64,000 nucleotides of DNA, from contig CAWBNO010000022.1 in the NCBI GenBank assembly GCA_963790095.1, positions 1,985 to 65,984 on the forward strand, read 5' to 3'. Made by a program: the position numbers and the translations under genes. Below, piece after piece: positions 4,343 to 46,398 of the stretch (position 1 is its first letter; each line of letters begins with the position of its first letter). The stretch is from an uncultured delta proteobacterium. Lineage in GTDB: Bacteria; Desulfobacterota; Desulfobacteria; Desulfobacterales; UBA11574. The notes beneath the pieces are model-generated. The model searched no databases. It was not told the origin of the DNA and worked only from the letters and a program-made list of their open reading frames with translations.

Positions 4343-4463
4343 GAGTATCCTTGTAAACGTTCAGGGTTCACGGTTCAAAGGTTCTAGAGTTACTCAGAAC
4401 GGGTTCCATGGTTGTAACAGCTTGACATCGCCAACATTTAAACTTGATGTTTGTATAGGCCAC

Positions 4464-4482
4464 TTTCACCCATTGGGTGAAA
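4464..4482. promoter_or_regulatory. 19-bp perfect palindrome TTTCACCCA-T-TGGGTGAAA upstream of the giant gene
   Basis: Read directly. It lies about 120-140 nt upstream of the ATG at 4342 on the minus strand. No binding protein is known. Confidence 0.25.
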
Positions 4483-4759
4483 TAGCATTTCTGTCCCTCA
4501 GAATATAAAATCCTTTTTGCATGCGCTGGTTAGAACTACAGCGACCTTTTATTGCTAACCATCTGAAATTTAATCTAAATTATATTCGGATTTTTTGAAT
4601 TGTCATTCCCGCAAAACCGAGAATCCAGTTTGTTTTCAGATATTATTGGGGTTCTGGAGCGCCATCGCGGGGAGCATGACGTTAAAGAGTGACTTTGAAG
4701 TATAAGATCTCTGCCGTCTGGTTTTCGGAATAAACCGATGGAACCGGTAAACATTCGCG

Positions 4760-5341
4760 TTATTCACCATAATTAAGCTGCTGTACCAGGAATGAATCGC
4801 CGTGCGCTACGAGCTCCATGGAAATATCCCCGCTGTTATCTTTCCAGGATCCTCCGTGCAACAGGTACTGGGTGAAGAATTTTCCCTGGATCCGGATGTT
4901 TCCGGTGTCAGGTTGTGTAGAATAGGCTAAAATTTCAATCCGGTACTTAAACGAATCGATCATCTCCATATTTTTTCGGTACGAGGGCATCAACTCCTGA
5001 AATGGCTGGTTGTTTTCGGAAGCGTCCGGCGCAAAAAAGGTGAAAAATTTATCAAGATTTTTGTTTTCGTAGGCTTGGCAATAGGTGTTCAAAAAAGTTC
5101 TCAGACGATCCGCAGTATCCTCTTTTTCAAGGACATTCTCTTTGGAGGCCACAAGGGTCTGTTCTGTATCCGTTTCAGACGGTATCTTTTCAACCGCAAC
5201 CGCTGATGGCGTGTCCGTTTCAGGTGCCGAAGAAATTTCACCGAAAACCGAGGATGCTTCATCAGATGGGGTCGCAGCCGTTTCCCGGGCCTCGGCGGAA
5301 GTTGCAGAACTATCTGGAGCAGCTGGGGATTCTTTGACCTT
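4760..5341 (-). CDS. NTF2/SnoaL-like domain segment; probably the frameshifted C-terminal part of the 5340..6422 gene
   Basis: Track ORF 4760..5530. Only the part after ...KVKESPAAPDSS reads like protein; the N-terminal 63 aa are an out-of-frame reading of the upstream ORF. There is no ATG, and only one GTG without an SD (5152) that could serve as an independent start. The C-terminal domain is paralogous to the end of the giant protein. Confidence 0.55.
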   Translation of the reverse strand, partial: KVKESPAAPDSSATSAEARETAATPSDEASSVFGEISSAPETDTPSAVAVEKIPSETDTEQTLVASKENVLEKEDTADRLRTFLNTYCQAYENKNLDKFFTFFAPDASENNQPFQELMPSYRKNMEMIDSFKYRIEILAYSTQPDTGNIRIQGKFFTQYLLHGGSWKDNSGDISMELVAHGDSFLVQQLNYGE

Positions 5342-6422
5342 AGACCTCCGGTACTGCCTCCTTATCAGCTTCAGGGGCCGCTGCTGCCGGCAGGTCACTT
5401 CCGGATTCGGCAGGCGCCGCTTCCACGGACGATTTTCCCAAAGCCATTGTTTCTTCTGTTCGGGCTTCTGATGTTTGGTCGAGCTGCGGGGTTTCGATTT
5501 TTCCATCTTGAGATACGTTAGAAGCAGCACCGGCCTTCACGGCTTCTTTAGCAGCAGATTCATTGGATGTTTCTTTAATCTCGAGTTCGGGGGTTTTCTC
5601 TGTTTTAGTTTCCGTCCCTGTAGCCTGCAACTTCTCCCCGGCAGGAGCAGGCAGTTCCAATTTAACCGCCGGTTTCTCTTCCGCAGGTTCGACGCTTGCT
5701 TTGTCCTTTAATGAAGGTTGGATCTTCGGACTGCCGGTCTTTTGCTTTTCCGGCGCAGAAGGAATTTTATCGGCAATGGCTGCTGCCATTAGAGCAGATT
5801 CGGGTTTTGGCGCTTGCTTAACCTCAGCATCAGGGGCTTTTTTGGTTTCAGTATCATCTGCGGACGCCGACAGGCTATCGTCACCAGGTGCAACGGGCGC
5901 TTTTTTAACCGCTGTTTTTTCAACCACGGGGGTCTCTTTTTCCTCGGCTTTTGGAGCGGGTTTGATCTGGGTCCTCGGGACCATTGGTTTTTCTATGGCC
6001 GAAGGCGTCTCGCCGGTTACCGATGGGACGTTGACAAGGGGGGGTGAATCCGCCTTTGAATTTTCCTCCTGAACCGGAGAAGGCCGGTCAGGGGTTTCTT
6101 TGGGTGCTGAAGATGCCTCCGCCTCCTCGACGGTCTGGTCAGAAGGAACGGGCTGATAATGTATGGAATGTGTTTCGGTTTGGGCCGTTTCTTTTTGAGC
6201 CAGTTTTATGGCTGTTGTCTTTTTTTGGACACTCTGATAGAAGAAATATCCGCCGATGATGAGCACCAAAGCTAAGCCGACTGCAAATACGGGGATCATC
6301 CTGCCGGGTTGCCGTTCTGATTTTTTTTCAACATCTGTTTTTACGGCTTTTGGCGGTTCAGGTGCTGTCTTTTCCTCTGTCCTTGACGCCAACGGCTGGT
6401 TTTGCCGGAGGTTTTTCCACAT
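5340..6422 (-). CDS. Single-pass membrane protein with a long K/E/P/A/T-rich low-complexity region (N-terminal part of a frameshift-split gene)
   Basis: 360-aa ORF with TM helix MIPVFAVGLALVLIIGGYFF. It stops at TAA 5342..5340 exactly where the other frame becomes protein-like. Confidence 0.6.
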   Translation of the reverse strand: MWKNLRQNQPLASRTEEKTAPEPPKAVKTDVEKKSERQPGRMIPVFAVGLALVLIIGGYFFYQSVQKKTTAIKLAQKETAQTETHSIHYQPVPSDQTVEEAEASSAPKETPDRPSPVQEENSKADSPPLVNVPSVTGETPSAIEKPMVPRTQIKPAPKAEEKETPVVEKTAVKKAPVAPGDDSLSASADDTETKKAPDAEVKQAPKPESALMAAAIADKIPSAPEKQKTGSPKIQPSLKDKASVEPAEEKPAVKLELPAPAGEKLQATGTETKTEKTPELEIKETSNESAAKEAVKAGAASNVSQDGKIETPQLDQTSEARTEETMALGKSSVEAAPAESGSDLPAAAAPEADKEAVPEV

Positions 6423-6828
6423 CCTCCGGTTTTATGGCTTTAATCTCTTCCGTATATTCCCACATCATATTGAGTTCGGTCATGATGCTTGTTCGTTCAT
6501 GGAATTTTGCTTCATTTCTGCGATGTTCGAGTTCTGCAATCTTTTTCTGAGCATATTCGACACCCTGTTGGACCTGGCCATTGGGGTCAAGATTCGCATC
6601 CGGCATACCGATCAATTGGACAATCTGTTCCTGAGAGTAACCGACGACCACACAATGCAAGATCAGTTTCAACCGTGCACGATCATAGATGCTGTAAACG
6701 CGACGGGTCAATATGGAACTCCTTGGCGATATAAGCCCTTTTTCCTCACAGAAACGGATATGACTCTTTTTAACGTCAAATTCTTTTGCAAGTTCAGAAA
6801 TGGTAAAATAGCGTTCAGTATTACTCAT
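6358..6828 (-). CDS. MerR-family transcriptional regulator
   Basis: N-terminal HTH FTISELAKEFDVKKSHIRFCEEKGLISP...RVYS is typical of MerR. It heads the minus-strand gene string. Confidence 0.8.
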   Translation of the reverse strand: MSNTERYFTISELAKEFDVKKSHIRFCEEKGLISPRSSILTRRVYSIYDRARLKLILHCVVVGYSQEQIVQLIGMPDANLDPNGQVQQGVEYAQKKIAELEHRRNEAKFHERTSIMTELNMMWEYTEEIKAIKPEDVEKPPAKPAVGVKDRGKDST

Positions 6829-6970
6829 GGTGTCACCAATATCCTCCCGATTCTTGCATGCAAAATTTCAAATTCATGGACAGGAAATGTCAAGCTGATA
6901 TTAAAAACACGGGATTCAGCGTGTTTTCAGAATCTGGCACCCGTTGCAAATACGAATTTTAACCGCCCAA

Positions 6971-6999
6971 TATATAGAACAAATCCGTTTGCATGTCAA
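6971..6999 (-). promoter_or_regulatory. Sigma70-like promoter candidate TTGACA-N17-TATATA reading toward merR
   Basis: The minus strand reads TTGACAtgcaaacggatttgttcTATATA, about 145-170 nt upstream of the merR ATG. Motif match only. Confidence 0.3.
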
Positions 7000-7027
7000 A
7001 ATAAAATAAGTTATACGCAGGTCAAAT

Positions 7028-7346
7028 GTAACTACTCAGGTGGATAGACTGAAGGTTGAAGGCTTTTAGGGACAAATCATGCGCGATCACACAAAAATTT
7101 GGGCATTTGAGCTGGCTGACGAGGTAGCAGTATTGGTTTATCGGGTGACCGCAGGGTTTCCGAGAGAAGAGTTGTATGGTCTAACTTCTCAAATGCGGCG
7201 AGCAGCGGTTTCGGTTTCTTCTAACATCGTTGAAGGTTGCGCACGTGACAGTCAGGCAGATTATCTTGTAGGTGAGTAGACTGAAGACTGTTAGATCACT
7301 TCAGCCTTCAGTCTTCAGTCTTCAACCTAAATACCTGAGTAGTTAC
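7028..7346. repeat. Hairpin cassette (singleton S1): 14-bp perfect terminal inverted repeat GTAACTACTCAGGT/ACCTGAGTAGTTAC plus CTGAAG-type repeat arms, enclosing a truncated gene
   Basis: Left arm gtaactactcaggtggatagactgaaggttgaaggc. Right arm gccttcagtcttcagtcttcaacctaaatacctgagtagttac. Confidence 0.8.
7079..7279 (+). pseudogene. Truncated four-helix-bundle protein (23S rRNA intervening-sequence protein family, PF05635-like)
   Basis: The 66-aa ORF carries ...FPREELYGLTSQMRRAAVSVSSNIVEG, the conserved first half of the family. It ends inside the right hairpin arm at about half the usual length. Confidence 0.65.
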
Positions 7347-7404
7347 AAAAGATCTTTAATTTCAACCAATTAAAAAAATTTCGAGACGTTAATAACACCT
7401 TTTT

Positions 7405-9303
7405 ATGAAATCAACCGTCTGCATTCTCCTTGTGAGTGTCATCGCTTTTTTCTGGGCGTGCGGCCCAAGGCCGATCCCCCCGCCCCAGCCTGTGGAATTC
7501 CATCCAGGAACCCCACTCTTTTCAAAGGCTGAAAAATTGTTCCAGAAAAAAGAATATGAGAATGCCCTGGAACTTTACAATGAATACATTTCAAATTTTC
7601 CAAAAGGATATCTGGCAGCCGAAGCGCTGATGAAAATTGGATTGATCCAGACAGCTTTGGGAGAAAATGACGCCGCACGGAAAATCTATGAACAGATAAT
7701 TGACAGATATCCCGACAGCTTTTTTGCCCTTACCGCCAAAGTGGAGATTCTCACGACCTTATCCAATGAAGGAAAATATCAACAGGTTATCCGTCGGGCG
7801 GGAGTCATTATTAAATCAACGAATTCCAAGGCATACCTTCTTAGAACATACATTCTTCTGGGTGATTCATATCTTGCCACCGGCTTTGCCGTAGATGCGT
7901 TAGACAGCTATCTTTCGGCATATAAAAAAGCGGCTGAAGAAGAAAAAGAGAATCTATACCCCAAGATAGAATGGGCCGCAAAAGATGCTGACCCCAAATC
8001 CATAGTTCGGCTTTTGACTCGAATGGGCACTGAGCTGCCGGCAGATGACCTTATCTATAGACTGGGCGTAAAAAAGTATGAATGGAAAAAATACGAAGAT
8101 TCCGTCAGCCTGTTATCGGTTTTTGTGGAACAATTCCCGAAACATCCCCATGTGGTCCCGGCAGAGGACTTAATCCAAGAAATCAACGAAAAGTTCACCT
8201 TCAACCATAACACCCTGGGATGTTTGCTCCCCCTCAGCGGCCCCTACGAAACTTATGGCCATAAAATATTGAATTGCATCGAACTTGCCCGGTTTCAGTT
8301 TAATGTTATACACAACCATTCTCCAATAAGATTAATTATAAAAGATACAGAATCTGATCCTGAAAAAGCTGCTCTGGCCGTACGAGAACTCTCCGAAGAG
8401 AGAGTCGGCGCCATTATCGGACCTGTGGCCGCACATGAAGCCCCAGCGGCAGCGGCCCAGGAAAAAAGGATTCCCATCATTACATTCAGCCAGAAAGAAA
8501 ATATCACAACCATCGGCGACTATGTTTTCAGGAATTTCATTACCCCTAAAATGCAGGTCGAATCACTCGTATCGTATGCAATGGGCGTTCTTGGACTCAG
8601 CCGTTTCGCCGTTCTTTATCCCAACGAGAAATATGGCAAAACCTTTGCAGAACTATTCCAGGACGAAGTCGATGCTTATGGCGGTGAAATTGTCAAGGTC
8701 GAGACGTATGATCCGGATCAGACGGATTTTGCAGACCCCATAAAAAAGCTTGCAGAATCGGATATGGCGTTCATCGAACGCCCGGATGAAAAAATGGTCG
8801 GTCCGGAGATTGAACAGATCAAACCCATCATCGATTTTGACGCGATATTTATTCCTGACGGGCCCAAAACATCCGGACTCATTCTCCCCCAATTGGCCTT
8901 TTACGATGTGGTGGGCATACAACTTCTGGGGACCAACCTTTGGCATTCCCATCGACTGATCCAAATGGCACAACAATTTGTCCAGGGCGCTATAATGGTC
9001 GACGGATTTTTTGCGGAAAGCCGTTCAAAGAAGGTAGAGGATTTTGTCAATTTATTTGAAGAGACTTTCGACGATAAACCCGGATTCATCGAAGCCGTGG
9101 CGTATGATACGGCAATGATATTGTTTAATCTGGTCAGCAGAAATGATATCCAATCGAGAAGCCAAATCAAAGATGAAATATTGAATCTTCGAAACTTCCA
9201 CGGCCTAACCGGAGTTACTTCTTTCGACCCCACCGGAAATGCTCAAAAAAAGCTCTATATATTACAAATAGAAAAGGACCATTTTATAGAGCTGGAAAAG
9301 TAA
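7405..9303 (+). CDS. Lipoprotein with N-terminal TPR repeats fused to a type-I periplasmic-binding-protein (Leu/Ile/Val-binding-like) domain
   Basis: 632-aa ORF with a lipobox-like signal LLVSVIAFFWAC, a TPR-like N-terminus and a C-terminal two-thirds resembling LivK/Peripla_BP_6. Confidence 0.7.
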   Translation: MKSTVCILLVSVIAFFWACGPRPIPPPQPVEFHPGTPLFSKAEKLFQKKEYENALELYNEYISNFPKGYLAAEALMKIGLIQTALGENDAARKIYEQIIDRYPDSFFALTAKVEILTTLSNEGKYQQVIRRAGVIIKSTNSKAYLLRTYILLGDSYLATGFAVDALDSYLSAYKKAAEEEKENLYPKIEWAAKDADPKSIVRLLTRMGTELPADDLIYRLGVKKYEWKKYEDSVSLLSVFVEQFPKHPHVVPAEDLIQEINEKFTFNHNTLGCLLPLSGPYETYGHKILNCIELARFQFNVIHNHSPIRLIIKDTESDPEKAALAVRELSEERVGAIIGPVAAHEAPAAAAQEKRIPIITFSQKENITTIGDYVFRNFITPKMQVESLVSYAMGVLGLSRFAVLYPNEKYGKTFAELFQDEVDAYGGEIVKVETYDPDQTDFADPIKKLAESDMAFIERPDEKMVGPEIEQIKPIIDFDAIFIPDGPKTSGLILPQLAFYDVVGIQLLGTNLWHSHRLIQMAQQFVQGAIMVDGFFAESRSKKVEDFVNLFEETFDDKPGFIEAVAYDTAMILFNLVSRNDIQSRSQIKDEILNLRNFHGLTGVTSFDPTGNAQKKLYILQIEKDHFIELEK

Positions 9304-9305
9304 AT

Positions 9306-9585
9306 ATCCGGGTCCAAAGGGCCCGGCTTTGGATTGCCACTAGAAGGGCTGTTTTACTTAAAACCGTACAAGTTAAAAGTGTCTAAAGCGGCCTATGTCT
9401 GGTTAGCCGGTTAGCCCGTTGTCCGGTGTTAGATTGCGGGCTAACGGTGCATAACGGGCCAACGGGCACGAACCTTTCTTAGCTTTAGCTCACTTTAAAC
9501 TTTAGTTCACTTCAAACTCTCGCAGCGATTCTTCAGGCAGAGCCGGGGAACTCTGACCTGGCCCAAAGGCCCAGGCTTTTTAAGC
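9306..9585 (+). repeat. Hairpin repeat family G copy 1 (CTAAAG/CTTTAG-type arms)
   Basis: The core ...ctaaagcggcctatgtctggttagccggttagcccgttgtccgg...cgggctaacgg...ctttagctcactttaaactttagttcacttcaaact recurs at 18962-19150. It ends with gaactctgacctggcccaaaggcccaggcttttt, which also occurs at 30614-30647. Confidence 0.75.
9308..9330 (+). terminator. Hairpin CCGGGTCC-aaa-GGGCCCGG followed by CTTT, directly after the stop at 9303
   Basis: Read directly. The same hairpin type starts several repeat copies, so it may be part of the repeat rather than a dedicated terminator. Confidence 0.4.
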
Positions 9586-9644
9586 GTTTCTTTTGATGCT
9601 TAAAGTTCTGCCTCGATTATGGAATAATGGCAAACAAAAACGAA

Positions 9645-11129: not shown

Positions 11130-11445
11130 TTCTAAAACATCTAGAAATTTCTACAATTGGTTAAAATTGATGAACTCGAAAAAATAAAATATCTTTTAAT
11201 AGCTACTGGTTTATGCCACTTCCATGGAATAATGGAATAATGGAGTGATGGATTTCAAAGGAGATTAAAAATTGTTCTTGTTGTTTCCCCAACTTTCCAT
11301 TGTTCCATCATTCCAATTGTGACCTGCGCGCTCGTGCCCCAGGCCGCATCGTCTTGCCCGTCCGCCATGGGCTTCGCCTCAGGCGAATGACGGGCGGGCT
11401 TGGCTGGCGGACGAGTTTGCAATGGCAGGCGGGGCGAACCGAACC
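11130..11445 (+). repeat. Repeat family E copy 1 (tail motif, GGAAT-type arms, GC-rich module)
   Basis: acatctagaaatttctacaatt ... ggaataatggaataatggagtgatgg ... ccattgttccatcattccaattg ... GC module ending ggcggggcgaacc. Related copies lie at 22588, 25370, 28010 and 45382. Confidence 0.8.
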
Positions 11446-11573: not shown

Positions 11574-11894
11574 TCAATGCGCAACATTCTGTTGGACGGG
11601 TAATGGTTTAATCGATTTTAGTTCTGCTGCTTCAGATTGCTGAGCAAAGTAAAGATCCCATCGAAGCTGAATATTCATCCAGAAATCCGCTGAGACTCTA
11701 AAATATTTACCAAGTCTTAATGCCGTGCTGGGTGTAACCCCCCTACGACCATTAATTATTTCATTAATCCTTTGGTATGGGACGTGTATTGCCTTTGCCA
11801 GTTCTTTCTGTGCGATACCCATTGGTTTTAAAAACTCTTCTAAGAGCATCTCCCCCGGATGGGTTGGCGTACGGTGAGTTGGTATGCGAATCAT
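11574..11894 (-). CDS. higA: HigA-family antitoxin (XRE HTH)
   Basis: HPGEMLLEEFLKPMGIAQKELAKAIHVPYQRINEIINGRRGVTPSTALRLGKYF is the canonical HigA pattern. It lies downstream of higB. Confidence 0.9.
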   Translation of the reverse strand: MIRIPTHRTPTHPGEMLLEEFLKPMGIAQKELAKAIHVPYQRINEIINGRRGVTPSTALRLGKYFRVSADFWMNIQLRWDLYFAQQSEAAELKSIKPLPVQQNVAH

Positions 11895-11919
11895 TTTGTG
11901 CTCCTAATATAAATAGTTA

Positions 11920-12213
11920 TTAATGATAATCGGTAATTTCAACTTCAACAGGACCTTTTTCAGACCATTTGAAACAAATCCGATATTGGTCATTTATTCG
12001 AACACTGTATTGCCCCAGCCTATTTCGAGTTAAAGCTTCTAATCTGTTTCCTGGTGGAATTCGAAGTTCATCAAGAGATAAAACAGAATCAATCTGGTCA
12101 AGTTTTCGGGCTGCAATTTTCCATAAGTTTTTCGGACATATTTTCCGGGCAATTTTTGAGGACAACCCATTAAAAATATCCTCGGTTCCTTTGCTCTTAA
12201 ATGACTGTATCAT
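11920..12213 (-). CDS. higB: HigB toxin (RelE/ParE superfamily, plasmid maintenance system killer)
   Basis: 97 aa: MIQSFKSKGTEDIF...LDELRIPPGNRLEAL...QYSVRINDQYRICF, with the toxin-first order typical of higBA. Confidence 0.9.
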   Translation of the reverse strand: MIQSFKSKGTEDIFNGLSSKIARKICPKNLWKIAARKLDQIDSVLSLDELRIPPGNRLEALTRNRLGQYSVRINDQYRICFKWSEKGPVEVEITDYH

Positions 12214-12467
12214 AAAAACATAATAACACGGTATCCATGCTATTTCAAGATAAAATTCTATTAACTGATATGTGCCCCCTGATGAAGCCCCATCTCCTTC
12301 ATTACCTGCCCGCGGTACTTTTAAAATGGCCGGGGGAATTTGCGGATTTGGAACCTATTGGTCTCATAACAACACTGTGGGTCATACTATATTTTATCTT
12401 TGACATTTACCGGGGACAACCTTTCGGATTGGCTTGACATAATGAGTGGTTGTCTGTATTTATAACC

Positions 12468-12668
12468 AAGGTTGAACGGTTCAGGGTTCATCGTTCCGGG
12501 TTGGAAAAACCTCAGATAACTCGTATCAATGTGATGCCGGCTTCATCGTGGTTTCAAAACCGTTCCACCCAAAAAATTATTACAGGTATACCGAATTCTG
12601 ATCAATAAGTTGTACAGTTTCAATCCGTTGTGCCCCTTCAACTTTGAACGCTGAACCTGGAACCGATC
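12468..12668. repeat. Hairpin repeat family F copy (GGTTCA-type arms)
   Basis: Left arm ggttgaacggttcagggttcatcgttcc. Right arm cttcaactttgaacgctgaacctggaacc. The same arm type occurs at 36554-36778, with a partial copy at 4356-4415. Confidence 0.7.
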
Positions 12669-13550: not shown

Positions 13551-13744
13551 ACGACCCTCCAATTTGATTAATCTATTTTTTCTCAATAAATTTTGTATTA
13601 GTGTCCATCCAGAAATGAGAATTTTTGTCCAAGATCAAGGCATGCGAAAAAAATAACCACAAGCATATAGATGATATTCTGAGGATTATTTTTTGAGCAT
13701 AACGCTGAGATTGGGCAAAAAGACCATTTATTGATGGGCACGAA

Positions 13745-14233
13745 TCAGGTTTTGTCCTTAAGTTCATCCAAAAGTTGCCTAAACTCCCTCGATTTTAAAT
13801 ATCTGTCGATAACCCCTTGATAATCGATCCATTTCCGCCATAATTCAAGCCATATATCGTTGTGCCAGTAATATTCTGGATTTCCCTTTCCTTTGAGCCG
13901 TTGGGTAAAATCCATATATTCCTCGTTACAACTCTCACAAAATCGAAAAGGTGCCCGGAGATCGTCGATAAATCTTTGTTTAGCGGGTTCATCCGGATGG
14001 ATCTGTGTGCCGCATTTCACGCATTTGAAAGCACACTGTAGGCATTGAAAAACTTTCTGAACCGCCAGAATTTTACGCTTTTTTATTATTTCAGCTTTTT
14101 TTTCTTTTGTGTGCTTTAGTTTGTCGTCAAGTTGGATAATATTCGACACGCTCGAAAACTCCCTGCGCATCCTGTTTTTTTGAGAGACCTTTGCAAAACT
14201 CCCCTTTTCGCCCAATTTCTGCGTCAGGCTCAA
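13745..14233 (-). CDS. Hypothetical protein with CxxC...CxxC zinc-ribbon-like motifs
   Basis: 162-aa ORF with a TTG start at 14233 (GAGGA 7 nt upstream). An alternative ATG lies at 14170. The first ~17 codons lie inside repeat J1. No family was recognised. Confidence 0.55.
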   Translation of the reverse strand: MSLTQKLGEKGSFAKVSQKNRMRREFSSVSNIIQLDDKLKHTKEKKAEIIKKRKILAVQKVFQCLQCAFKCVKCGTQIHPDEPAKQRFIDDLRAPFRFCESCNEEYMDFTQRLKGKGNPEYYWHNDIWLELWRKWIDYQGVIDRYLKSREFRQLLDELKDKT

Positions 14234-14900: not shown

Positions 14901-14931
14901 CACGCAACCGCATTTATAAGGATTTTCATAC

Positions 14932-16008: not shown

Positions 16009-16011
16009 TAG

Positions 16012-16521: not shown

Positions 16522-16534
16522 CGGCATCCAGTTA

Positions 16535-31575: not shown

Positions 31576-31582
31576 ATCCCCT

Positions 31583-36815: not shown

Positions 36816-39800
36816 ATGTCCAAAGATGTAATCGGATCGGTACTGGTAGTGGGAGGCGGAATAACAGGAATGCAATCTGCTTTGGATTTAGCGGATTCCG
36901 GGTTTTATGTCCACCTCGCGGAAAAGTCACCGGCCATCGGCGGCATAATGTCACAACTGGACAAGACCTTTCCCACCAATGACTGTGCCATGTGAATTAT
37001 CTCACCCAAACTGGTCGAGGTCGGCCGGCACATTAACATAGAGCTCCACACCATCACCGAGGTTAAGGAAATATCCGGCGAAGCCGGTAATTTTAAGGTC
37101 ACCCTGAACAAAGGTGCGCGATATATCGATCTTGACAAATGTACGGGGTGCGGAGATTGTACCGAAGTTTGCCCGGTCAGTCTTCCCAGTTTTTACGATG
37201 AGCGACTCATCGACCGGAAAGCGGTGTATAAGCCTTATGCACAGGCCGTACCCGGAGCCTATTCCATAGACAAAAGAGATTCTTCCCCCTGTACCCATGC
37301 CTGTCCGAACCATGTAAATGCTCACGGATATGTGGCCATGATTGCACAGGGAAAATATACGGAGGCCCTGGAGGTTATCACACGGACCCTGCCGCTGCCG
37401 GGTGTTCTCGGTCGGATCTGTCCCCATCCGTGCGAAGACGGGTGCCGACGGAAAGACGTGGATGAACCGATCTCCATCTGCACTCTCAAACGTTTTGCAG
37501 CGGACCAGGTTGATATCCATGACCTTCCCTTGACCGAGATCACGCCAAGGGACGAAAAGATCGCAATCATTGGCGCCGGACCTGCCGGCCTCACCGCGGC
37601 CTATTTTCTGGCACAAGATGGTTTCAAGGTGACCATTTTCGAGGCCCTTCCTGTGGCCGGCGGCATGCTCAGAGTCGGAATTCCGGATTACAGGCTCCCA
37701 CCGGATGTTCTTGAAAAAGAGATCGAGTGGATCACCCGGCTCGGCGTCGAGATAAAATTCAATACAGCCCTTGGACGAGACATGACCATCGATAGCTTGA
37801 TGGACGACGGGTACCAATCGGTTTATCTCGCCGTCGGCTGTCATGCCAATATGAAACTTAACATCCCCAACGAAGATACCGAAGGTGTCATCCCCGGCGT
37901 TAAATTCTTAAGAGATGCAGCACTTGGCGACATCAAAGACGTCAAGGGGAATGTCGCCATCGTCGGCGGCGGGGATGTGGCAATCGATGCTGCGAGATCA
38001 GCGTTACGCCTGGGTGCGGACACCGTCAGCATCCTTTACCGGCGGACCCTTACAGAAATGCCGGCTCGGGCAGAGGAGATCGAAGATGCCCTCGAAGAAG
38101 GGGTCGATATTCAGTTCCTTATGGCCCCGATGGAGGTAATGGAAAAAGACGGTAAAGCCGTGGGTCTCAAATGCATAAAAATGAAATTGGGAGCCCCGGA
38201 TAAAAGCGGCCGTCGTCGCCCGGTTCCGGTTGAAGGAAGTGAATTTGTCGTCGATACGGATGTTATCATACCGGCCATCGGCCAGCGTACCGACACGGCG
38301 TTTCTTAACGGCTCAACCGGTGTCGATCTGGACCGATGGAACAACATCGACGTCGATCCGGTGAGCTTCGAAACCACCAGAAAAGGCGTGTTTGCAGGGG
38401 GTGATGCCCAGACCGGCGCTTGGATCGCCATTGGAGCGGTGGCTGCCGGACGGGAGGCCGCAATTTCCATATCCAGATATCTCGATGGCGCAGATTTAAA
38501 AGAAGGGCGAAAACCCATTGAAATTCCCCAGAAAAATTTCAACCCCATCGATAAAAATATCCCAAAGGTTAAAAGGGCCAAAATGCCCAGAATTTCCATG
38601 GAAGCCCGGAAAACAACCTTTGACGAGGTTGAACGGGGTTTGAGTGAAGCCGCGGCGGTGACCGAGGCCAAAAAATGCCTGAACTGCATGGTATGCTGTG
38701 AGTGTCTCGAATGTGTAAAGGTTTGTAAGGCCGAAGCACTGACCCTCAAAACCCATTCCCAAAAGGATGAACCGATAGAGATCCAGGTGGGTTCCATCAT
38801 TTTGACGCCGGGGGGTGCACCCTATGATCCTGCCCGGCACGACATCTACGGATACACCAAACATCCCAACGTGGTGACGTCCATGGAGTTCGAGCGGATT
38901 CTTTCGGCTTCCGGACCCTATGGCGGGCATATGGTAAGACCCTCGGATCATAAAGAGCCGAAAAAAATAGCCTGGCTCCAGTGCATCGGGTCCAGGGATG
39001 TCCATGTGGGTGCCAATGGCTACTGCTCAGGGGTGTGCTGTACGTACGCCATCAAAGAAGCCATGCTGGCCAAAGAGCACAGCAGCGAAGACCTGGATGC
39101 AGCCGTTTTTTATATCGACATCCGCACCTACGGGAAAGACTTCGAAAGATACTACAACCGTGCCAAGGATGAACTGGGGGTTCGGTTCGTCAAATCCAAA
39201 GTGTCCCGTATCGACCCGGATGAAGAGACGGGGATGCAGATTATCCGGTATGTGGACGAGACCGGCAGGCGTGTGGAAGAAGAATTTGACATGGTGGTCC
39301 TGTCCGTGGGCCTGACAGCATCGATGGAAACAACCGCCCAGGCAAAAAAATGGGGCATCGATCTGGATCATTACAACTTTGCCAGCAGCAGCAGCTTTGA
39401 TCCGGTTCAGACGTCCAGGGCCGGCATATATGCCTGCGGTATTTTTCAAGCCCCCAAAGATATCCCGTCTTCGGTGATCGATTCCAGCGCTGCTGCGGGT
39501 GTGGCCGGCAGCAGGTTGGCCGAGTCTCGGTGGACCCTCACAAAAACCAGAGAAGTCCCCGACGAAACGGATGTCCGGGGAGACCCGCCCCGGATCGGTG
39601 TTTTTGTCTGCCGATGCGGAACCAATATCGCGGGAATCGTCGATGTCCCTGAAGTTGCGGAGTTTGCAAAAGACCTCCCCGGCGTTGCCCACGTAGAGGA
39701 GAACATGTTCAGCTGCTCCCAGGACACACAGGATAAGATGACCGAGGTCATTAAAGCGCACCGACTGAATCGGGTGGTGGTTGCCGCCTGTACCCCAAAG

Positions 39801-41264
39801 ACCCACGAGCCTTTATTTCAAGAGACCTTAATTAACGCCGGTATCAACAAGTATCTGTTTGAGATGGCCAACATTCGGAACCAGTGTTCGTGGGTTCATA
39901 AAGACGACCCGGCCAAGGCCACTGAAAAGTCGAAAGATATTCTCAGGATGGCCGTTGCCAAGGCCATGCTTCAGGAACCGTTGTCGGAATCGACCATGGA
40001 GATCCACCCGTCGGCTTTGGTTGTCGGCGGCGGGGTTTCGGGAATGGCAGCGGCCAAAAATCTGTCGGAACAGGGATATCAGGTATTTCTGGTTGAAAAG
40101 ACCGATGCCCTCGGGGGGCAAGCGCGTCATCTCCATGAAACCTGGCGGGGTGAGGACATTCAGGAATATTTGACAAGTTTAACGGCTGCGGTTCAGTCCG
40201 ATGATAACATAACGGTCGTTCTAAATGCCGAGATTACCCATGTTGACGGATTTGTGGGGAACTTTAAAACCACCGTCTCCTGCAACGGCGAAGACAACGT
40301 CCTGGAGCACGGCGTGACCATCATTGCCTCGGGGGCGTCGGAATTCAAGCCCGACGGATATCTATACCCAGAAGACGCCCGCGTGGTAACAGGCCTGGAG
40401 CTTCAGCAGCGGTTTATCGACAAGGACCCGTCCATCGATCAAATCGACACGGCGGTGTTTGTTCAGTGTGTGGGCTCCAGAATCCCGGACAGACCCTACT
40501 GTTCCAAGGTCTGCTGCACACAATCCATTAAGAGCGCGCTGAAACTTAAAGAAACCAACCCGAAAATGGACGTTTTTATTCTTTACAGGGATTTACGCCC
40601 CTATGGTCTCAGGGAAGATCTTTACCGCCGAGCGCGCACCGAAGGCATTGTATTCATCCGCTATGACTCGGGAAAAGACCTCCACGTGGCTACGGAAGAC
40701 GGGGAGCTCAAGGTCAGTTTCACCGACCGGGTTCTGGGACGGATGATGGAGATACGGCCTGAACTTTTGGTCCTGGCTTCGGCCATTGTTCCGGATTCAA
40801 AAAACCCCCTGGCCCAGATGTATAAGATCCCCCAGAATGCCGATGGATTTTTTGCCGAAGCCCATGTCAAACTACGGCCAATGGATTTTGCCACGGACGG
40901 TGTTTTCGTGTGCGGACTGGCCCATGCGCCCAAACCCATCGATGAATCCATCGTTCAGGGGGAGGCCGCCGCTTCCCGTGCCGTAACAGTATTGGCCAAA
41001 GGGGTGTTCCAGACCAGCGGCATTGTCGCTGAAACAAACCCTGCCCACTGCAGTTCCTGCGGGGTATGTGTTTCCGAATGTCCTTATTCAGCACCCAGTT
41101 TTATTGAAGAGGGACCTTTTACCGGAAAAACCCGGATCAATCCGGTTCTGTGTAAAGGCTGCGGTCTCTGCGTCGCCTCTTGTCGATCCGGCGCCATTCA
41201 CCTCAAAGGATTCGACAATGATCAGATCTTTGCACAGATCTTTGCATTGAATGAGGCGGTATAA
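36816..41264 (+). CDS. hdrA: HdrL-type heterodisulfide reductase subunit A-like flavoprotein with an inserted GltD/NfnB-like NAD(P)H module; selenocysteine encoded by TGA at 36993-36995
   Basis: ATG 36816 (AGGAG 9 nt upstream) gives [29 protein letters not shown]...[24 protein letters not shown]... This is in frame with and continuous into track ORF 37224..41264. The Sec sits where HdrA homologs carry Cys/Sec. Total about 1482 codons. Confidence 0.85.
37011..37028 (+). promoter_or_regulatory. Candidate SECIS hairpin CUGGUC-GAGGUC-GGCCGG, 15 nt downstream of the hdrA UGA
   Basis: Folded by eye only. The GGUC-containing loop resembles bacterial SECIS apical loops. Confidence 0.3.
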
Positions 41265-41325
41265 TCGTTATTCTGTCTTTTTCGTAACAGATTTTGTTTA
41301 AATACAATCATGGGCGGCTCAAAGA

Positions 41326-41440
41326 AATGCCTAAAATTAAAATCGCCTAAATTGTTTGAAGTTTAGGATGGCAATGATTCAACAAAATGAAGAATTCCAA
41401 AATCTTCGTCTATTTTAAACTTTGCTTCACTTTAGGGACT
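41326..41440 (+). repeat. Family G-like hairpin element in the hdrA-mvhD spacer
   Basis: atgcctaaaattaaaatcgcctaaattgtttgaagtttagg ... ttttaaactttgcttcactttaggg. The arm type matches family G and the centre differs. Confidence 0.5.
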
Positions 41441-41474
41441 TCCCCGGTTTATCCGGGTTAGGAGAATTCTTAAT

Positions 41475-41906
41475 ATGTCAGACTGGGAACCCAAAATCGT
41501 CAGTTTCTTATGCAACTGGTGCAGTTATGGTGCCGCTGATCTTGCAGGGGTCAGCAGGATGGAATATCCGCCGAACATCCGGGTGATCAGAATTCCTTGT
41601 ACAGGTCGGATGAGCCCGAAATTCATTCTGGCTGCCTTCAGACAGGGCGCGGACGGCGTATGGGTGTCCGGGTGACATCCCGGAGATTGCCATTACCTGG
41701 AAGGTAATTACTATGCACGCAGAAAATTTGCTTTATTTAAAAACTTCATCGAATATATGGGGATCGAACCCGGTCGCCTCCATTTTTCATGGATCTCCTC
41801 TGCAGAATCGGTAAAATTTGTGGATGTGGCCAAAGAGACCGTGGAGGCAGTCAAAGCCCTTGGACCGAACAACAATTTTATAAAAACAAAAGCTAAGGTC
41901 GCTTAA
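41475..41906 (+). CDS. mvhD: MvhD/FlxD-like (methyl-viologen-reducing hydrogenase delta subunit family) selenoprotein; TGA at 41673-41675 read as Sec
   Basis: Track ORF ...GADGVWVSG stops at TGA. The same frame continues [18 protein letters not shown]... to TAA 41904-41906. The family motif is G-C-x-x-G-D-C-H-Y, so Sec replaces the first Cys. Confidence 0.8.
41692..41708 (+). promoter_or_regulatory. Candidate SECIS hairpin AUUACC-UGGAA-GGUAAU downstream of the mvhD UGA
   Basis: Perfect 6-bp stem read directly, 16 nt after the UGA. Confidence 0.3.
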
Positions 41907-41907
41907 C

Positions 41908-42855
41908 ATGTTCGCCTACATAGAAAAAATCAAAGAAATATCGAATCGGCTGTTAAAAGAATCCAAGGTTGATCTCATTGTCGGCTTCAGAAAAGGAACG
42001 GTACCGATGATGAACGAACCTTGTTTTGCAAAAACCCCGGAAGATGTTGACGGTTTGGTATGGGACAGCAGTTGCGGAATCAATCTGGCGAACTACCTTG
42101 CCAACAGAAAGGAAAAAATCGGTATTGTTTCAAAGGGGTGCGATTCCAGAAACATCGTGACCCATATTATCGAAAATAAAATCAAACGGGATCAGGTCGT
42201 AATTATCGGCGTCCCCTGCAAAGGAATGATCGACCGGCACAAAATCGAAGCCATGTTTGATACCGAAATCGAGGCGGTCACCGAGGCCGACGGCCGAATA
42301 AATATCAAGGGCGACGGTGTTGATAAAATCATCGATAAAAAAGATGTCCTCCAGCAAAACTGCACCATCTGTACCCACCGCAACCCGGTCATCTACGATG
42401 AACTTGCCGCCGATCTTGTCGAAGAGCAGACCGATGTGGACAAGTACGAGGATGTTCGCAGAATTGAAGACATGACACCCGAAGAGAAATGGGAATATTT
42501 CGAGGATCTTCTCTCGACGTGTATCCGCTGCTATGCCTGTAGAAATGCATGCCCACTCTGCTATTGTCCCACCTGTTTTGTGGATGAGTCACAGCCCCAG
42601 TGGGTGGGCAAAAGTCAAAACCCCACAGACATAAGGACGTTTCACTTTTTACGAGCATATCATTGTGCCGGTCGGTGCACCGACTGCGGGGCATGTGAGC
42701 GTGCCTGTCCAATGGGAATTAAGGTCAGACTCTTAACAAAGAAACTGGAAAAAGACTGCCTTGAGCTGTTCGACTGGGAGTCCGGTTTGACCCTGGAAAA
42801 AAGGCCGCCTCTGGATACTTACAGACCCGATGATCCGGATGATTTTATTAAATAG
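41908..42855 (+). CDS. Fe-S protein with two 4Fe-4S motifs (FlxC/AsrA-like partner of HdrA-MvhD)
   Basis: 315 aa with CIRCYACRNACPLCYCPTC and CTDCGACERACP. The start is 1 nt after the mvhD stop. Confidence 0.7.
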   Translation: MFAYIEKIKEISNRLLKESKVDLIVGFRKGTVPMMNEPCFAKTPEDVDGLVWDSSCGINLANYLANRKEKIGIVSKGCDSRNIVTHIIENKIKRDQVVIIGVPCKGMIDRHKIEAMFDTEIEAVTEADGRINIKGDGVDKIIDKKDVLQQNCTICTHRNPVIYDELAADLVEEQTDVDKYEDVRRIEDMTPEEKWEYFEDLLSTCIRCYACRNACPLCYCPTCFVDESQPQWVGKSQNPTDIRTFHFLRAYHCAGRCTDCGACERACPMGIKVRLLTKKLEKDCLELFDWESGLTLEKRPPLDTYRPDDPDDFIK

Positions 42856-42919
42856 TGTCCATCCACAATTGTTAAATGGGCACATTACGTTTCCAATTCA
42901 TAAATGAGCAATTTTTGTT

Positions 42920-43001
42920 CGGATCAAGGCCGCACAAGGGTTTTCGGTGAGGCATACTCCCTGTATGCCGCAGCCGGAAACTCACGGAGAACGCAGATCC
43001 G
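42920..43001 (+). ncRNA. Candidate structured RNA (nested stems) inside the 285-nt intra-cluster gap
   Basis: P1 CGGATC/GATCCG (42920-25/42996-43001), P2 GTGAG/CTCAC, P3 GCATAC-tccct-GTATGC (42952-42968). Folded by eye, and no known family was recognised. Confidence 0.25.
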
Positions 43002-43139
43002 GGCAAAAAGAGCCATTTATGGATGGAAACTAAATAGGTATTGGACATGGTCCATCGTCATGGGGCATTATCCGTTTGTAAAAAGAATGTATGAGCCCAC
43101 AACACGTGACTCCTGGCAAAAAAGATAAAGGCACATACC

Positions 43140-44186: not shown

Positions 44187-44269
44187 GACTGACTTCGTGA
44201 CTGAATTATCAACAACAGTTTTGTCCTTCAAAACAAACCCGGTTTCAAACGAGCTTCAAGTTTGATTAA

Positions 44270-44440
44270 ATTTTATTCTGGAAACTGTTTGAGTGGTTTA
44301 GGGCTTGTTATGAAAGAACCATCGTTGAATTAATTTAAAGCTAAAACGTTTTATCAAAGTACAAACCTTTATTAATGGCCTTGGCGAGTTCTTTTATTAC
44401 AAGCCCTTGTCCACGAGTTTTTTCAGAAAAAATTTAATTA
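44270..44440 (+). repeat. Hairpin repeat family H copy 3, inside the 340-nt spacer before the FAD subunit gene
   Basis: ctgtttgagtggtttagggcttgttatgaaagaacc pairs with gagttcttttattacaagcccttgtccacgag. Confidence 0.6.
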
Positions 44441-44528: not shown

Positions 44529-45380
44529 GTGGAAGTGCGAAATCCGTATTTGCCGTATCCGGTTCGTATAGATGAAATCATCACTGAAACCGAAGATAAA
44601 AATCTGAAAACATTTAAACTGGTCTTTATACATCCGGAGGACGAAGAAAAATTTAATTACCAGGCCGGTCAGTTTGCCGAGCTCTCGGTTGCCGGAAAAG
44701 GAGAAATTCCCATCGGCATCGCTTCATCTCCCACGGAAAAAGGGTTTTTAATGTTTACGGTCAACAAGGTGGGTCTGGTAACATCCCATCTTCACAATAT
44801 GAAGGCCGGAGATATCATGGGCGTCCGTGGACCTTTGGGAAACTGGTACCCCTGGGATATCATGGAAGGCAAGAACGTTGTCATTATCGGCGGCGGGTTT
44901 GCGTTTACCACCCTTCGCTCTTCCATCATATATATGCTGGATCCGGCCAACCGGCCAAAATTTAAAGATATCCATGTAATATACGGCGCCCGTACACCGG
45001 GCATGCTTCTTTACAGGGACGAACTGGCCCAATGGGAAAAACGCGACGATATCAACATGCATATTACGGTGGATGCTACGGACGATCCAGACTGGAAATA
45101 CAATATCGGCTTTGTCCCCACCATTACCAACCAGAAGGCCCCCCCCGGCAACCCGGACACCTATGCCATTGTCTGCGGACCTCCCATTATGATTAAGTTT
45201 ACCCAGCCGGTTTTGGATACCCTGGACTATTCCCATGATCATATTATCATGTCCCTTGAAATGCGCATGAAATGCGGCATCGGAATATGCGGCCGGTGCA
45301 ACATCGGTAAAGAATTCGTTTGTAAAGACGGTCCGGTCTTTACGCTGAACCAGCTGAATAATATGCCGAAAGAGTACTAA
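44529..45380 (+). CDS. AsrB/HydG/PyrK-like FAD/NAD(P)-binding subunit with C-terminal 2Fe-2S (FlxA-like)
   Basis: 283 aa with GGGFAFTTLRS and CGIGICGRCNIG. The GTG at 44535 is an equally plausible start (AGGAG 8 nt upstream). Confidence 0.8.
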   Translation: MEVRNPYLPYPVRIDEIITETEDKNLKTFKLVFIHPEDEEKFNYQAGQFAELSVAGKGEIPIGIASSPTEKGFLMFTVNKVGLVTSHLHNMKAGDIMGVRGPLGNWYPWDIMEGKNVVIIGGGFAFTTLRSSIIYMLDPANRPKFKDIHVIYGARTPGMLLYRDELAQWEKRDDINMHITVDATDDPDWKYNIGFVPTITNQKAPPGNPDTYAIVCGPPIMIKFTQPVLDTLDYSHDHIIMSLEMRMKCGIGICGRCNIGKEFVCKDGPVFTLNQLNNMPKEY

Positions 45381-45381
45381 T

Positions 45382-45560
45382 ACGTCTCGGAAATTCTACA
45401 ATTTATTGAAATTAAAGGTTTTTTAATAGCTTCTGGTTTATGCTTCTTCCATGGAATATTGGAATAGTGGAATGCTGGGACGAAGGAACAAAATCAATCT
45501 GATTCCTTCAGTAACCCATTATTCCATTGTTCCATCATTCCAATTGTGAGCCAAGCGAAC
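45382..45560 (+). repeat. Repeat family E copy 5 (tail plus GGAAT arms, no GC module)
   Basis: acgtctcggaaattctacaattt begins 1 nt after the TAA stop ... ggaatattggaatagtggaatgctggg ... cccattattccattgttccatcattccaattg. Confidence 0.8.
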
Positions 45561-45680
45561 TAACTTGAATATCTTCAACACCCAATTCACCTAAAAGTCG
45601 TGACTTTTTAAAAACAGGTGTTATTTTGTGGTATAAACAAAATTGATTCTGAGCATAAATCAGCAAAGAAGGTAATATTT

Positions 45681-46118
45681 ATGGCCACCGAAGAAGGCAT
45701 TGTGATTAAAACCGATTCCCAAACAGCATGGGTGAAAACCACCAAAACCGGTGCATGTAAGGCGTGTTCGGCAAGGAGCTCCTGCCAGAGCCTGGGCGGC
45801 GGTAAGGAAATGGAGGTGGAAGCAATTAATCGTGCAGGGGCGAAAGTGGGCCAGAAGGTGGTGCTGAGTTTTGACACGTCCCCGTTGCTAAAAGCCACGT
45901 TTCTGCTTTACGTGTTTCCCATTATTGCCATGGTCGTCGGCGCTTTTATCGGTCAGAAGATGGCTGCTTTTTGGAATTTCGACACGTCCATGGTCTCTGC
46001 AATTATGGGATTTTCATTTTTTGGGCTTACACTCCTCTTCGTTCGATCAAAGGGAAACAAGCTGGCCCAAAAAGACGAATACCAGCCGAAAATCATCAGG
46101 ATTATCCGGCAGTCATAG
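45681..46118 (+). CDS. rseC: RseC/MucC-family (SoxR-reducing system) membrane protein
   Basis: MATEEGIVIKTDSQTAWVKTTKTGACKACSARSSCQ followed by two TM helices. The start is reset to ATG 45681. Confidence 0.7.
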   Translation: MATEEGIVIKTDSQTAWVKTTKTGACKACSARSSCQSLGGGKEMEVEAINRAGAKVGQKVVLSFDTSPLLKATFLLYVFPIIAMVVGAFIGQKMAAFWNFDTSMVSAIMGFSFFGLTLLFVRSKGNKLAQKDEYQPKIIRIIRQS

Positions 46119-46251
46119 GGGGCTTATTCTATTGAGGTCTTAGCCTTTCTGCACCAGGATTTCAGATCACAAGGTCACGGTGTTGCAGAACATGAACTTG
46201 CCCGGTTGAAATCTCCAAAATTCCAACGGGCGGTCCGCTGACATACAATTT

Positions 46252-46398
46252 GTAGAGACCTTTGAAAAAGGTTCATTTTTGTTCAAGTTCAAGGAAGACG
46301 AAAATTTTAACCACAGGAATACATAGCGTATTTCGAGGTTTATAATTTGAAACCTGACGCAGAAATTGGGCAAAAAGGGGCGTTTTGCTAAGGTCTCT
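46252..46398 (+). repeat. Repeat family J copy 2: duplicate of the upstream region plus first ~14 codons of gene 13745..14233
   Basis: gagacctttgaaaaaggttcatttttgttcaagttcaaggaagacgaaaattttaaccacaggaatac...tttgaaacctgacgcagaaattgggcaaaaaggggcgttttgctaaggtctct. Confidence 0.75.

Follow-up and report, generated by a model that had tools for sequence, protein, structure and literature searches.

Between positions 4356 and 46400 of a 64,000-nt stretch (hereafter the window) of contig CAWBNO010000022.1, from an uncultured delta proteobacterium of the Desulfobacterales, the spacers between genes are filled with long hairpin-forming repeats. We conclude that these are probably a mixed population of small non-autonomous mobile hairpin elements: elements of the intervening sequence (IVS) type, elements resembling miniature inverted-repeat transposable elements (MITEs), and derivatives without an open reading frame (ORF). 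The best explanation is that such elements have colonised the intergenic spacers of an uncultured Desulfobacterales clade, and that the periodic-arm design is that of IVS-type elements. The kinds of element themselves are known; the main added value of the analysis is the link between MITEs, IVSs and the short tandemly repeated repetitive (STRR) hairpins. Genes of the window include hisIGC and genes for PBP1A, Era and an M17 peptidase, as well as an HdrA/MvhD-type operon with in-frame TGA codons. No rRNA was identified in the window by Rfam search, and every element copy lies between protein-coding genes. A search of the window for tRNA and tmRNA genes also found none. No Rfam family matched the window at its gathering score, and at E <= 1 the only matches were chance similarities to plant microRNA hairpins.

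The gene map used for the gap statistics was curated by hand and the element bounds were drawn by hand. The region contains 26 gaps totalling 9330 nt (22% of its length), and 28 elements or fragments fill 68% of the gap sequence. A prior inspection of the DNA without database searches (the sequence-only reading) had proposed that nearly every gap above 150 nt is occupied, including gaps within operons. This is correct: all 23 such gaps contain at least one element, among them gaps inside the hdrA-mvhD and hisIGC-engB-era runs. The recurring families that it described are real. A direct-repeat search recovered family A (four copies, mean column identity 77%), E, G, K, H, an I-type and a GC-rich 107-nt module, and an inverted-repeat search found ten long palindromes. 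Tandem Repeats Finder (TRF) identified arrays of period 7, 8, 14 or 16-17 in the arms of S1, G1, G2, E1, E2, E4, E5, A1-A4, K1, K2, F1 and F3. Together with a strict periodicity test, this bears out the short-unit periodicity of the arms; the period, given before as 5-7 nt, measures 7-8 nt. The unit sequences are highly diverse, and differences in unit number are confined to one arm (e.g., a 14-nt indel, 2 x 7, in A2/L058). When 27 stretches were compared with dinucleotide shuffles, 21 folded better (z -2.5 to -13.5).

The small GC hairpin reported at many copies was identified at A1-A4, G1 and G2, and the pattern CCKGGNCCMRAGGRNCCNGG has five matches in the window versus 0.17 expected. A scan with this end-hairpin pattern, using one genome per species, returned 58 loci, nearly all from metagenome-assembled genomes (MAGs) of Desulfobacterales/Desulfobacteraceae; viral contigs gave no match. 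CP070843 and CP070694 are complete MAG chromosomes with the end hairpin. The families are not confined to the window, as eight types (A, G, F, K, E, H, J and the type at 42.8 kb) occur in other Desulfobacterales MAGs at 70-95% identity. Within the window, a few elements fall beyond the limits first given for the repeats: a 200-nt hairpin at 53567-53766 (arms 81% complementary) and a fragment of the 42.8-kb family at 52261-52304. As had been stated, transposase and integrase domains are absent from the window ORFs scanned, and there is no CRISPR-like regular spacing in the window, where repeat units of 7-8 nt are contiguous and form inverted arrays.

The elements are mobile or recently lost. 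An exact-protein look-up retrieved contigs for HisG alone (four other window proteins gave no match); the six metagenome contigs encoding identical HisG are 98-99% identical to the window. Orthologous spacers, a comparison recommended in the sequence-only reading, include exact empty sites for three elements. G2 (262 nt) is missing from one contig, where the empty site reads CTCAAAAAA joined directly to TAGATG. I7 (188 nt) is missing from L001-L005, and one 107-nt GC-rich module from L003 and L005. The GC-rich module was inserted separately and is nested in other elements. For G2, a TA target duplication fits the junction and was set aside, being too short to serve as evidence. In L001, 16008-16521 (H1 and A2) is swapped for a piece of about 60 nt from a different family. 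Since L039 has I7, the closer strains have probably lost it. The element lies at the very 3' end of an engB-like gene (21808-22407) and changes the C-terminus of the product (199 aa, compared with 194 aa in L001-L005).

Two loci from other species, L064 (MAG-BB-01-B) and L039 (SF_100_bin76), share gene order with the window and are about 90% identical to it in nucleotide sequence. Their genes are kept and their spacers hold different elements. L039 has a simple terminator-like hairpin only at the A3 site, a J-type element at the K1 site and an F element at the E2 site, and is without E4 and its GC module. L064 has J-type elements at the G1 site and a 119-nt F-type element with a GTAAC terminal inverted repeat (TIR) at the site orthologous to F2. 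Copies of J were identified in L039, L053 and L064; they carry the TIR GTACGTGTTCAGGGGG, and two have target-site duplications (TSDs) of 8-9 bp. Elements are also nested. The GC module occurs inside E and inside J, and J within an arm of E. One A arm has a 47-nt insert, the loop of one end hairpin contains a 31-nt hairpin, and a decayed IVS-protein ORF holds a complete composite. G2, J1, F2 and F3 lie in divergent promoter regions.

S1 connects the window repeats with a known protein family. It has a perfect 14-nt TIR, GTAACTACTCAGGT (7028-7041 and 7333-7346), and a 66-codon ORF for the N-terminal half of a four-helix-bundle protein of the TIGR02436 type (E 2.7e-17, covering positions 4-55 of the 109 in the profile). 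Full-length relatives of the ORF belong to PF05635 (23S_rRNA_IVP; E 1e-34 to 1e-40), have PDB relatives 2GSC and 2RLD, and show sub-threshold similarity to bAvd; the relationship of PF05635-type proteins to Avd has been stated before (PMC10053308). A metagenome scan with the S1 peptide gave 306 relatives, of which 80 loci were kept, a sample biased towards relatives of S1. S1 is not the singleton it was taken for, as its DNA occurs in more than 25 metagenome contigs at 72-98% identity with unrelated flanks. In a syntenic contig (L100, compared with window positions 4834-7196), the flanking genes are 85% identical and the S1 element 96% identical, which suggests recent replacement or transfer of the element.

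The relatives of S1 have the ends of a transposon. Among 31 GTA...TAC TIR pairs surveyed across all collected loci, the flanks have a bimodal distribution of matches: five pairs are duplicated at 8/8 positions (L065, L066, L071, L101 and L015) and all others at 5/8 or fewer. Two further TSDs, with an offset, are at L088 and L095. The duplicated targets are AT-rich and 8 bp long. ISDge4, of the ISBst12 group of the IS66 family of insertion sequences (ISs), has the TIRs GTGACTACTCAGCA and GTAACTGCTCAGCA and an 8-bp direct repeat (PMC12898284), and inverted repeats of IS66 start GTAAGCG and are flanked by 8-bp direct repeats (PMC11946415). The S1 TIR, alone among those of the window elements, matches the ISDge4 ends at 11 of 14 positions. 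Given the TIR and the 8-bp TSDs, S1-type elements are taken to be non-autonomous IS66/ISBst12 derivatives with a passenger gene. Like MITEs of this group, they are multi-copy and have no internal transposase, and only some carry the passenger; the difference is that no cognate autonomous IS was identified in the window or the collected loci. To our knowledge, neither subterminal periodic arrays nor a four-helix-bundle passenger is a known feature of IS66 derivatives.

The S1 family forms a size series, from copies of 453-483 nt with a 118-aa ORF, through copies of 279-330 nt with a truncated ORF (319 nt in the window), to the 119-nt element of L064, which has no ORF and has F-type GGTTCA arms. 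In L065 a mini-hairpin breaks codon 66 and the C-terminal half of the gene is still there. L015, 314 nt long, is a MITE without an ORF that combines G-type CTAAAG arms with a GTAAC TIR, and F-type arms surround decayed IVS-protein genes in L017 and L018. A hidden Markov model of 35 IVS proteins, searched against six-frame translations of the window and L001-L064, matched only S1, L064, L017, L028 and, weakly, L018.

Inverted arrays are a general feature of IVS-protein genes. At the metagenome loci, inverted arrays of degenerate short units lie 15-40 nt upstream and 0-60 nt downstream of the gene, and the unit varies by protein clade (CTGAAGG, CTGTAGG, TTAAGGG, NTGAGC, TTAGC, GTGAACN, GGTCAGT and others). 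In the strict test the period was always 7 or 8. Inverted repeats of at least 24 bits between two 150-nt flanks were found for 26 of 49 IVS-protein genes and for one of 133 control ORFs of the same loci (p 7e-14). An independent sample consisted of ten plasmid loci of cultured bacteria that carry IVS-protein genes. Seven have inverted heptamer arrays (Nostoc punctiforme, Anabaena sp. 90, Calothrix brevissima, Nostoc edaphicum, Aulosira, Geminocystis and Azospirillum), two have direct arrays and one is weak. In Azospirillum (L154) the element interrupts a true 23S rRNA gene (Rfam LSU model positions 987-1467). Thus, a bona fide IVS shares the design.

Two of the plasmid loci, L147 (Pseudanabaena galeata pPg_01) and L148 (Anabaena sp. 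90 pANA02), have the four-helix-bundle gene and long heptamer arrays between cas6 and cas4. The arrays of L147 are in direct orientation, (AAAAGCT)n upstream and (AAAAGCC)n downstream. Occurrence of IVS-protein genes within cas operons was noted earlier (PMC3936711). The heptamer arrays could explain the reported CRISPR association of the four-helix-bundle family. In the literature searched, no paper links heptamer repeats to four-helix-bundle genes.

The arms also show strand asymmetry. The sense strand of the arm duplex is more stable than the antisense strand in 31 loci, compared with 18 for the reverse (p 0.005), and G-U asymmetry was identified in S1, H, I and the 42.8-kb type. This modest excess and the asymmetry fit folding as RNA.

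Families A and G are built differently. Copies start (G)TAAAGAATCC-GGGCC-CAGAGG-...CCGG and end CCTGGCC-CAGAGG-GCCAGG-TTTTTCAAG..TAAATAAA, so that one hairpin occurs as a direct repeat at both ends, left and right, and the two loops of any one element match. About a third of 62 oriented copies are a solo form of about 45 nt, GTAAAGAATCCGGGCCCAGAGGACCAGGTTTTCAAGGACTAAATAAA, and the rest contain very diverse inner hairpins. The centre of G had been described as conserved; this does not hold across genomes, as G composites in other MAGs hold a different inner hairpin. The solo form consists of the left half of the left hairpin and the right half of the right hairpin, i.e., the outermost stem of the composite. 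It could have been left by deletion between the end hairpins or, alternatively, could be the target whose loop an inner hairpin entered. The empty site of G2 has no hairpin at all, which favours movement of the composite as a unit. Integron attC sites have RYYYAAC/GTTRRRY cores; an attC reading of the solo hairpin was rejected, as it has no such cores. No paper in the literature searched contains the end-hairpin sequence or describes these Desulfobacterales repeats.

The shell of A and G (GTAAAGAATCC-GGGCC-CAGAGG-...) resembles REP sequences in that the end hairpin is a short GC-rich imperfect palindrome in high copy (the 58 loci mentioned above). It could be moved on single-stranded DNA by an HUH enzyme (RAYT or IS200/IS605-type), with the end hairpins as left and right subterminal hairpins. 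Direct-repeat end hairpins with matching loops, the lack of a TSD at G2 and the multi-copy occurrence in many Desulfobacterales MAGs are in line with this, as is the orientation of the window copies: all six left end hairpins (at 9308, 14586, 16310, 18970, 24731 and 30361) are on the plus strand, whatever the direction of the flanking genes, and A4 is antisense to both neighbours. This orientation may reflect replication-strand bias, or chance (two-sided p about 0.03 in a small sample), and so speaks less clearly for an HUH enzyme. We consider the HUH route improbable. REPINs are inverted pairs, whereas the A/G hairpins have the same loop (CAGAGG) on the same strand, and the elements carry a cargo hairpin of 150-250 nt. 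No RAYT or Y1 transposase was seen, though none was specifically searched for in the collected loci.

Growth in place would also produce some of these features. Slippage would make the 7-8-nt arrays and template switching the palindromes, and copies would spread only by homologous recombination or gene conversion. The one-arm differences in unit number, the very diverse units and the inner hairpins at the tips of outer ones agree with this, and the identity of the solo hairpin with the outermost stem is what deletion between end hairpins would leave. Near-identical copies at unrelated loci and in different genera are difficult to reconcile with such an origin, as are the exact TSDs and conserved TIRs of the relatives, and the empty site of G2 offers no homologous sequence for recombination. 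We therefore find in-place growth very unlikely.

The end hairpins, with a GC-rich stem-loop followed by a T-run, are the top terminator-like matches of the scanned region, and resemble intrinsic terminators in their predicted structure and position downstream of genes. Of the 62 cassette copies, 33 directly follow a co-oriented ORF and 15 provide the in-frame TAA stop of the upstream ORF. Solo copies also occur after stop codons, between the stop codon and the next ribosome-binding site. These observations, with the strand asymmetry expected of RNA folding, could indicate that the stretches are host-selected RNA modules (terminators, mRNA stabilisers, RNase III sites or operon insulators), repeated through convergent selection or gene conversion; stabilisation of transcripts has been proposed for the cyanobacterial STRR hairpins (PMC2670836). 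We judge this unlikely as the main explanation. Strains that are 98-99% identical differ by whole elements, sister species have unrelated elements at the same site, and elements lie in divergent promoter regions, in other elements and in a decayed ORF. Exact 8-bp target duplications in the relatives are unexpected for RNA modules, and truncated passenger genes point to decay rather than maintenance. Of the two options that the sequence-only reading put forward, a MITE- or IVS-like selfish superfamily is favoured over RNA modules by the polymorphism, site swaps, nesting, the gene in S1, and the IS66/ISBst12-like TIR and 8-bp TSDs of the S1 relatives. An RNA-level role (termination, RNase III processing) is compatible with mobile elements as the reason why their insertions are tolerated.

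That option needs to be qualified on one point. The population is not one homogeneous superfamily, and includes MITEs with TIRs and TSDs (S1, J, and F- and G-type copies in the relatives), shell composites (A and G), the asymmetric E elements and the GC module. E elements have a conserved end segment of about 45 nt (..ACGTCTCGGAAATTCTACAATTG..) with promoter-like hexamers, e.g., TTGAAA-17-AATAAT at 28306-28278. The segment adjoins gene starts at three places and stop codons at three, and an E element may carry its own promoter.

Several results weigh against a population of mobile IVS- and MITE-like elements. Clean TSDs were not found at G2, E4, I7 or the GC module. The flanks of S1 in the window match at 1/8 positions, i.e., it has no TSD, and another element adjoins it on the right. 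For the J copy of L064, the apparent TSD is located within a periodic arm and might instead reflect a difference in the number of units. A search of about 0.8 Mb and of the window for an autonomous IS with matching ends (TIR pairs GT...AC, 0.9-4 kb, with TSDs) gave no convincing candidate. A, E, K and the GC module are without the S1-type TIR/TSD signature, and the asymmetry and promoter-like 5' segment of E raise the possibility of a small transcription unit in place of a MITE. The window loops of A, E, G, K, H, J and F1-F3 contain no detectable IVS-protein remnant, and no E-, A-, G- or K-type units were found beside IVS-protein genes in the 80 metagenome loci, which are biased towards S1. 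Since no coding remnant was found, an ORF-bearing ancestry of A, E, K and the window copies of G is suggested by shared design only. Two IVS-protein loci (L147 and L145) have direct rather than inverted arrays. Folding beyond that of shuffles is not clear for six stretches (F1, F2, A1, G2, GC2 and GC3+E), and covariation in nine copies of family A (43 pairs, mostly invariant) is uninformative on structural selection.

For the mobile elements that we favour, we propose the following mechanism. Internal deletions of ORF-bearing copies would leave ORF-less hairpins. At least the S1 lineage, J and the F- and G-type copies of the relatives, whose TIRs start GTAAC or GTAC, are probably mobilised in the manner of MITEs or mobile insertion cassettes. 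A transposase of the DDE type from the IS66 family (ISBst12 group), none of which is encoded in the window, would act in trans from elsewhere in the genome, and the ends of the cognate IS are expected to match GTAACTACTCAGG. A and G sit inside a second shell, the pair of terminator-like GC hairpins, which could collapse to the single hairpin of about 45 nt. By analogy with rRNA IVSs, the long stem may insulate the insert and is a likely RNase III substrate, and the end hairpins are predicted to terminate transcription. Insulation, cleavage and termination together would make insertions beside stop codons and inside operons survivable.

The sequence-only reading did not recognise the repeats as a described class. 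This is true in part: STRR hairpins (PMC2670836) and 23S rRNA IVSs (PMC4990558) are described, and we did not find a description of a link between them or of their occurrence in Desulfobacterales. ORF-bearing stem-loop IVSs are known from 23S rRNA of Leptospira and Coxiella, and rRNA IVSs are cut by RNase III (PMC4990558). In these, complementary termini form a stem around a gene for a four-helix-bundle protein of about 120 aa, as in S1 (with its truncated ORF), and the arms of the Azospirillum IVS are inverted heptamer arrays of the S1 type. Other shared features are a sporadic distribution with long-suspected mobility, and position: IVSs replace the tip of a pre-existing hairpin, and several window-type insertions are also at hairpin tips. 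The window elements differ in that they occupy intergenic and operon spacers rather than rRNA and mostly have no ORF, and S1-type elements have IS66-like TIRs and 8-bp TSDs, which we did not find reported for IVSs.

STRR sequences are 7-bp tandem-repeat hairpins of cyanobacterial operon spacers (e.g., hupS-hupL) with unknown function (PMC2670836). The window repeats resemble them in having tandem units (7-8 nt in the window), forming hairpins and occurring in spacers inside operons. STRR sequences were described for filamentous cyanobacteria, whereas the host of the window and its closest genomes are Desulfobacterales; the window units are degenerate and differ from family to family, and strains have demonstrably gained or lost the hairpins. 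We found no link of STRR sequences to four-helix-bundle genes in the literature searched; arrays bracket these genes in the seven inverted-array plasmid loci, which are mostly cyanobacterial. REP/BIME/REPIN, ERIC and Correia (NEMIS) sequences are likewise intergenic, hairpin-forming and strain-polymorphic (REPIN: PMC3116915). The window elements are unrelated to them in sequence, without an Rfam match, and much longer (100-350 nt), with periodic arms, many co-resident nested families and end hairpins that are direct rather than inverted. REP/BIME/REPIN, ERIC and Correia sequences are co-transcribed with flanking genes and act as terminators, mRNA stabilisers or RNase III targets.

A broader interpretation, which we hold tentatively and with more doubt than confidence, is that inverted 7-8-nt arrays around a four-helix-bundle (Avd-like) gene constitute one widespread and unrecognised mobile class that covers rRNA IVSs, STRR hairpins and ORF-less spacer hairpins. 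The oligomeric protein would recognise its own units and take part in mobility or RNA processing, and the elements would insert preferentially at hairpin tips that already exist, in rRNA helices, terminators or other elements.

Table 1. Hairpin elements and fragments in the window (positions in the window; z, folding score relative to dinucleotide shuffles; D numbers, repeat families).
Element	Position	Strand	Remarks
F1, short hairpin fragment, GGTTCA-type units	4356-4430		TRF period 7 at 4359-4377; z +0.8
S1, IVS-type hairpin element	7028-7346	+	CTGAAGG/TTGAAGG arms; truncated ORF 7079-7279; z -4.3
E-family end segment, solo fragment adjoining S1	7347-7391	-	D11
G1, composite	9303-9584	+	Left terminator-like hairpin 9308-9327, CTAAAG arms, inner GGTTAGCC hairpin, right hairpin and T-run; z -3.2
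E-family fragment	9591-9630	+	D12
E1	11134-11322	+	Conserved 5' segment and hairpin; TGGAATAA-type 8-nt units
GC1, GC-rich 107-nt module nested at E1 end	11323-11430	+	92% identical to GC2
F2, hairpin, GGTTCA arms, unique centre	12455-12665		85% copy in L039 at a different site
I-type fragment	13621-13722	-	78% identical to I1
I1, long hairpin, arms not periodic	14160-14345	-	z -6.4; minus-strand RNA folds 16 kcal/mol better than plus
A1, composite, end hairpins and ACAAAT/ATCAAA-arm module	14578-14905	+	Direct-repeat family
H1, long hairpin	16005-16290	-	z -5.8; 72% identical to H2; absent in L001
A2, A copy without right end hairpin	16302-16524	+	Absent in L001
G2, composite, insertion polymorphism	18961-19222	+	Absent from L002; present in L001, L003-L005
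I7, hairpin altering engB 3' end	22387-22574		z -7.1; absent from L001-L005; 85% copy in L039
E2	22575-22820	+	z -5.0; TRF-periodic arms
GC2, nested GC-rich module, insertion polymorphism	22821-22927	+	Absent from L003, L005; present in L001, L002, L004
A3, composite	24723-25050	+	Upstream gene ends at the first TAA of A3
GC3 and E3 (partial E)	25380-25590	-	Direct-repeat family
K1, hairpin, GTGAAA/GTAAAA heptads	26495-26613	+	z -3.8
GC4 and E4	28007-28361	-	Entire 355 nt absent from L039
H2, long hairpin	30015-30320	+	z -12.4; 86% copy in L058
A4, composite, both end hairpins	30353-30655	+	End hairpins CCTGGTCCAGAGGGCCAGG / CCTGACCCAGAGGGCCAGG; direct-repeat family
K2	31580-31703	-	88% identical to K1, inverted
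J1, GC-rich long hairpin	33140-33392		z -13.5; nested mini GC module at about 33319-33352
E-like end fragment	35291-35336	+	D8
F3, GGTTCA-arm hairpin upstream of hdrA	36545-36775		TRF; z -2.9
G3, CTAAA-arm hairpin between hdrA and mvhD	41300-41460		z -2.8; singleton, no other copy found
42.8-kb-type hairpin inside operon	42848-43040	+	z -8.3; copies in L042, L044, L001
H3, hairpin partly related to H2	44255-44420		D15; z -3.2
E5, no GC module	45379-45560	+	z -5.5
I6, I-type hairpin	46250-46400	+	90% identical to I1, inverted; plus-strand RNA folds 19 kcal/mol better
E end segments	11134-11179, 22590-22635, 45379-45424, 7347-7391, 25539-25583, 28315-28359		

Other features of the window were also identified. 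The hdrA-like gene (36817-41264) has an in-frame TGA at about 36992-36994 (..NDCAM*IISPK..), which causes the ORF finder to split hdrA, and the mvhD-like gene (41476-41905) has one near 41672-41674 (..VSG*HPGDCHY..). Homologues usually have cysteine at both positions, and the codons are probably selenocysteine codons. A stand-alone gene for a 100-aa HNH endonuclease (25059-25360) lies between A3 and GC3+E3, and is conserved at this position in L039. Among NCBIfam models, it most resembles the HNH domains of Cas9d and IscB, with scores that fall far short of the cut-offs. A higB/higA-type toxin-antitoxin pair (11574-12213) is encoded between E1+GC1 and F2, and its HigA matches TIGR02607 (E 1e-30). 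The stretch of about 230 nt between I1 and A1 (14346-14577) is non-coding and matches no repeat family; the conservation of 14326-14479 in L064 is 80%. A strong promoter-like site on the minus strand (14383-14355, 11/12) is near the start of the stretch, which could be a small RNA or leader.

Since the early 1990s it has been asked how rRNA IVSs arise and move and what their conserved ORF does (PMC4990558). Here, the same architecture is abundant and strain-polymorphic, and occurs at every stage from ORF-bearing to ORF-less. The transposon-type ends and TSDs of the relatives offer a concrete, testable mechanism of mobility and a candidate nucleic-acid target for the four-helix-bundle/Avd-like family. 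For the host genomes, the elements inflate intergenic DNA to more than a fifth of the region and break metagenome assemblies. Confusion with CRISPR-associated genes or arrays is possible, and the elements may give rise to terminators.

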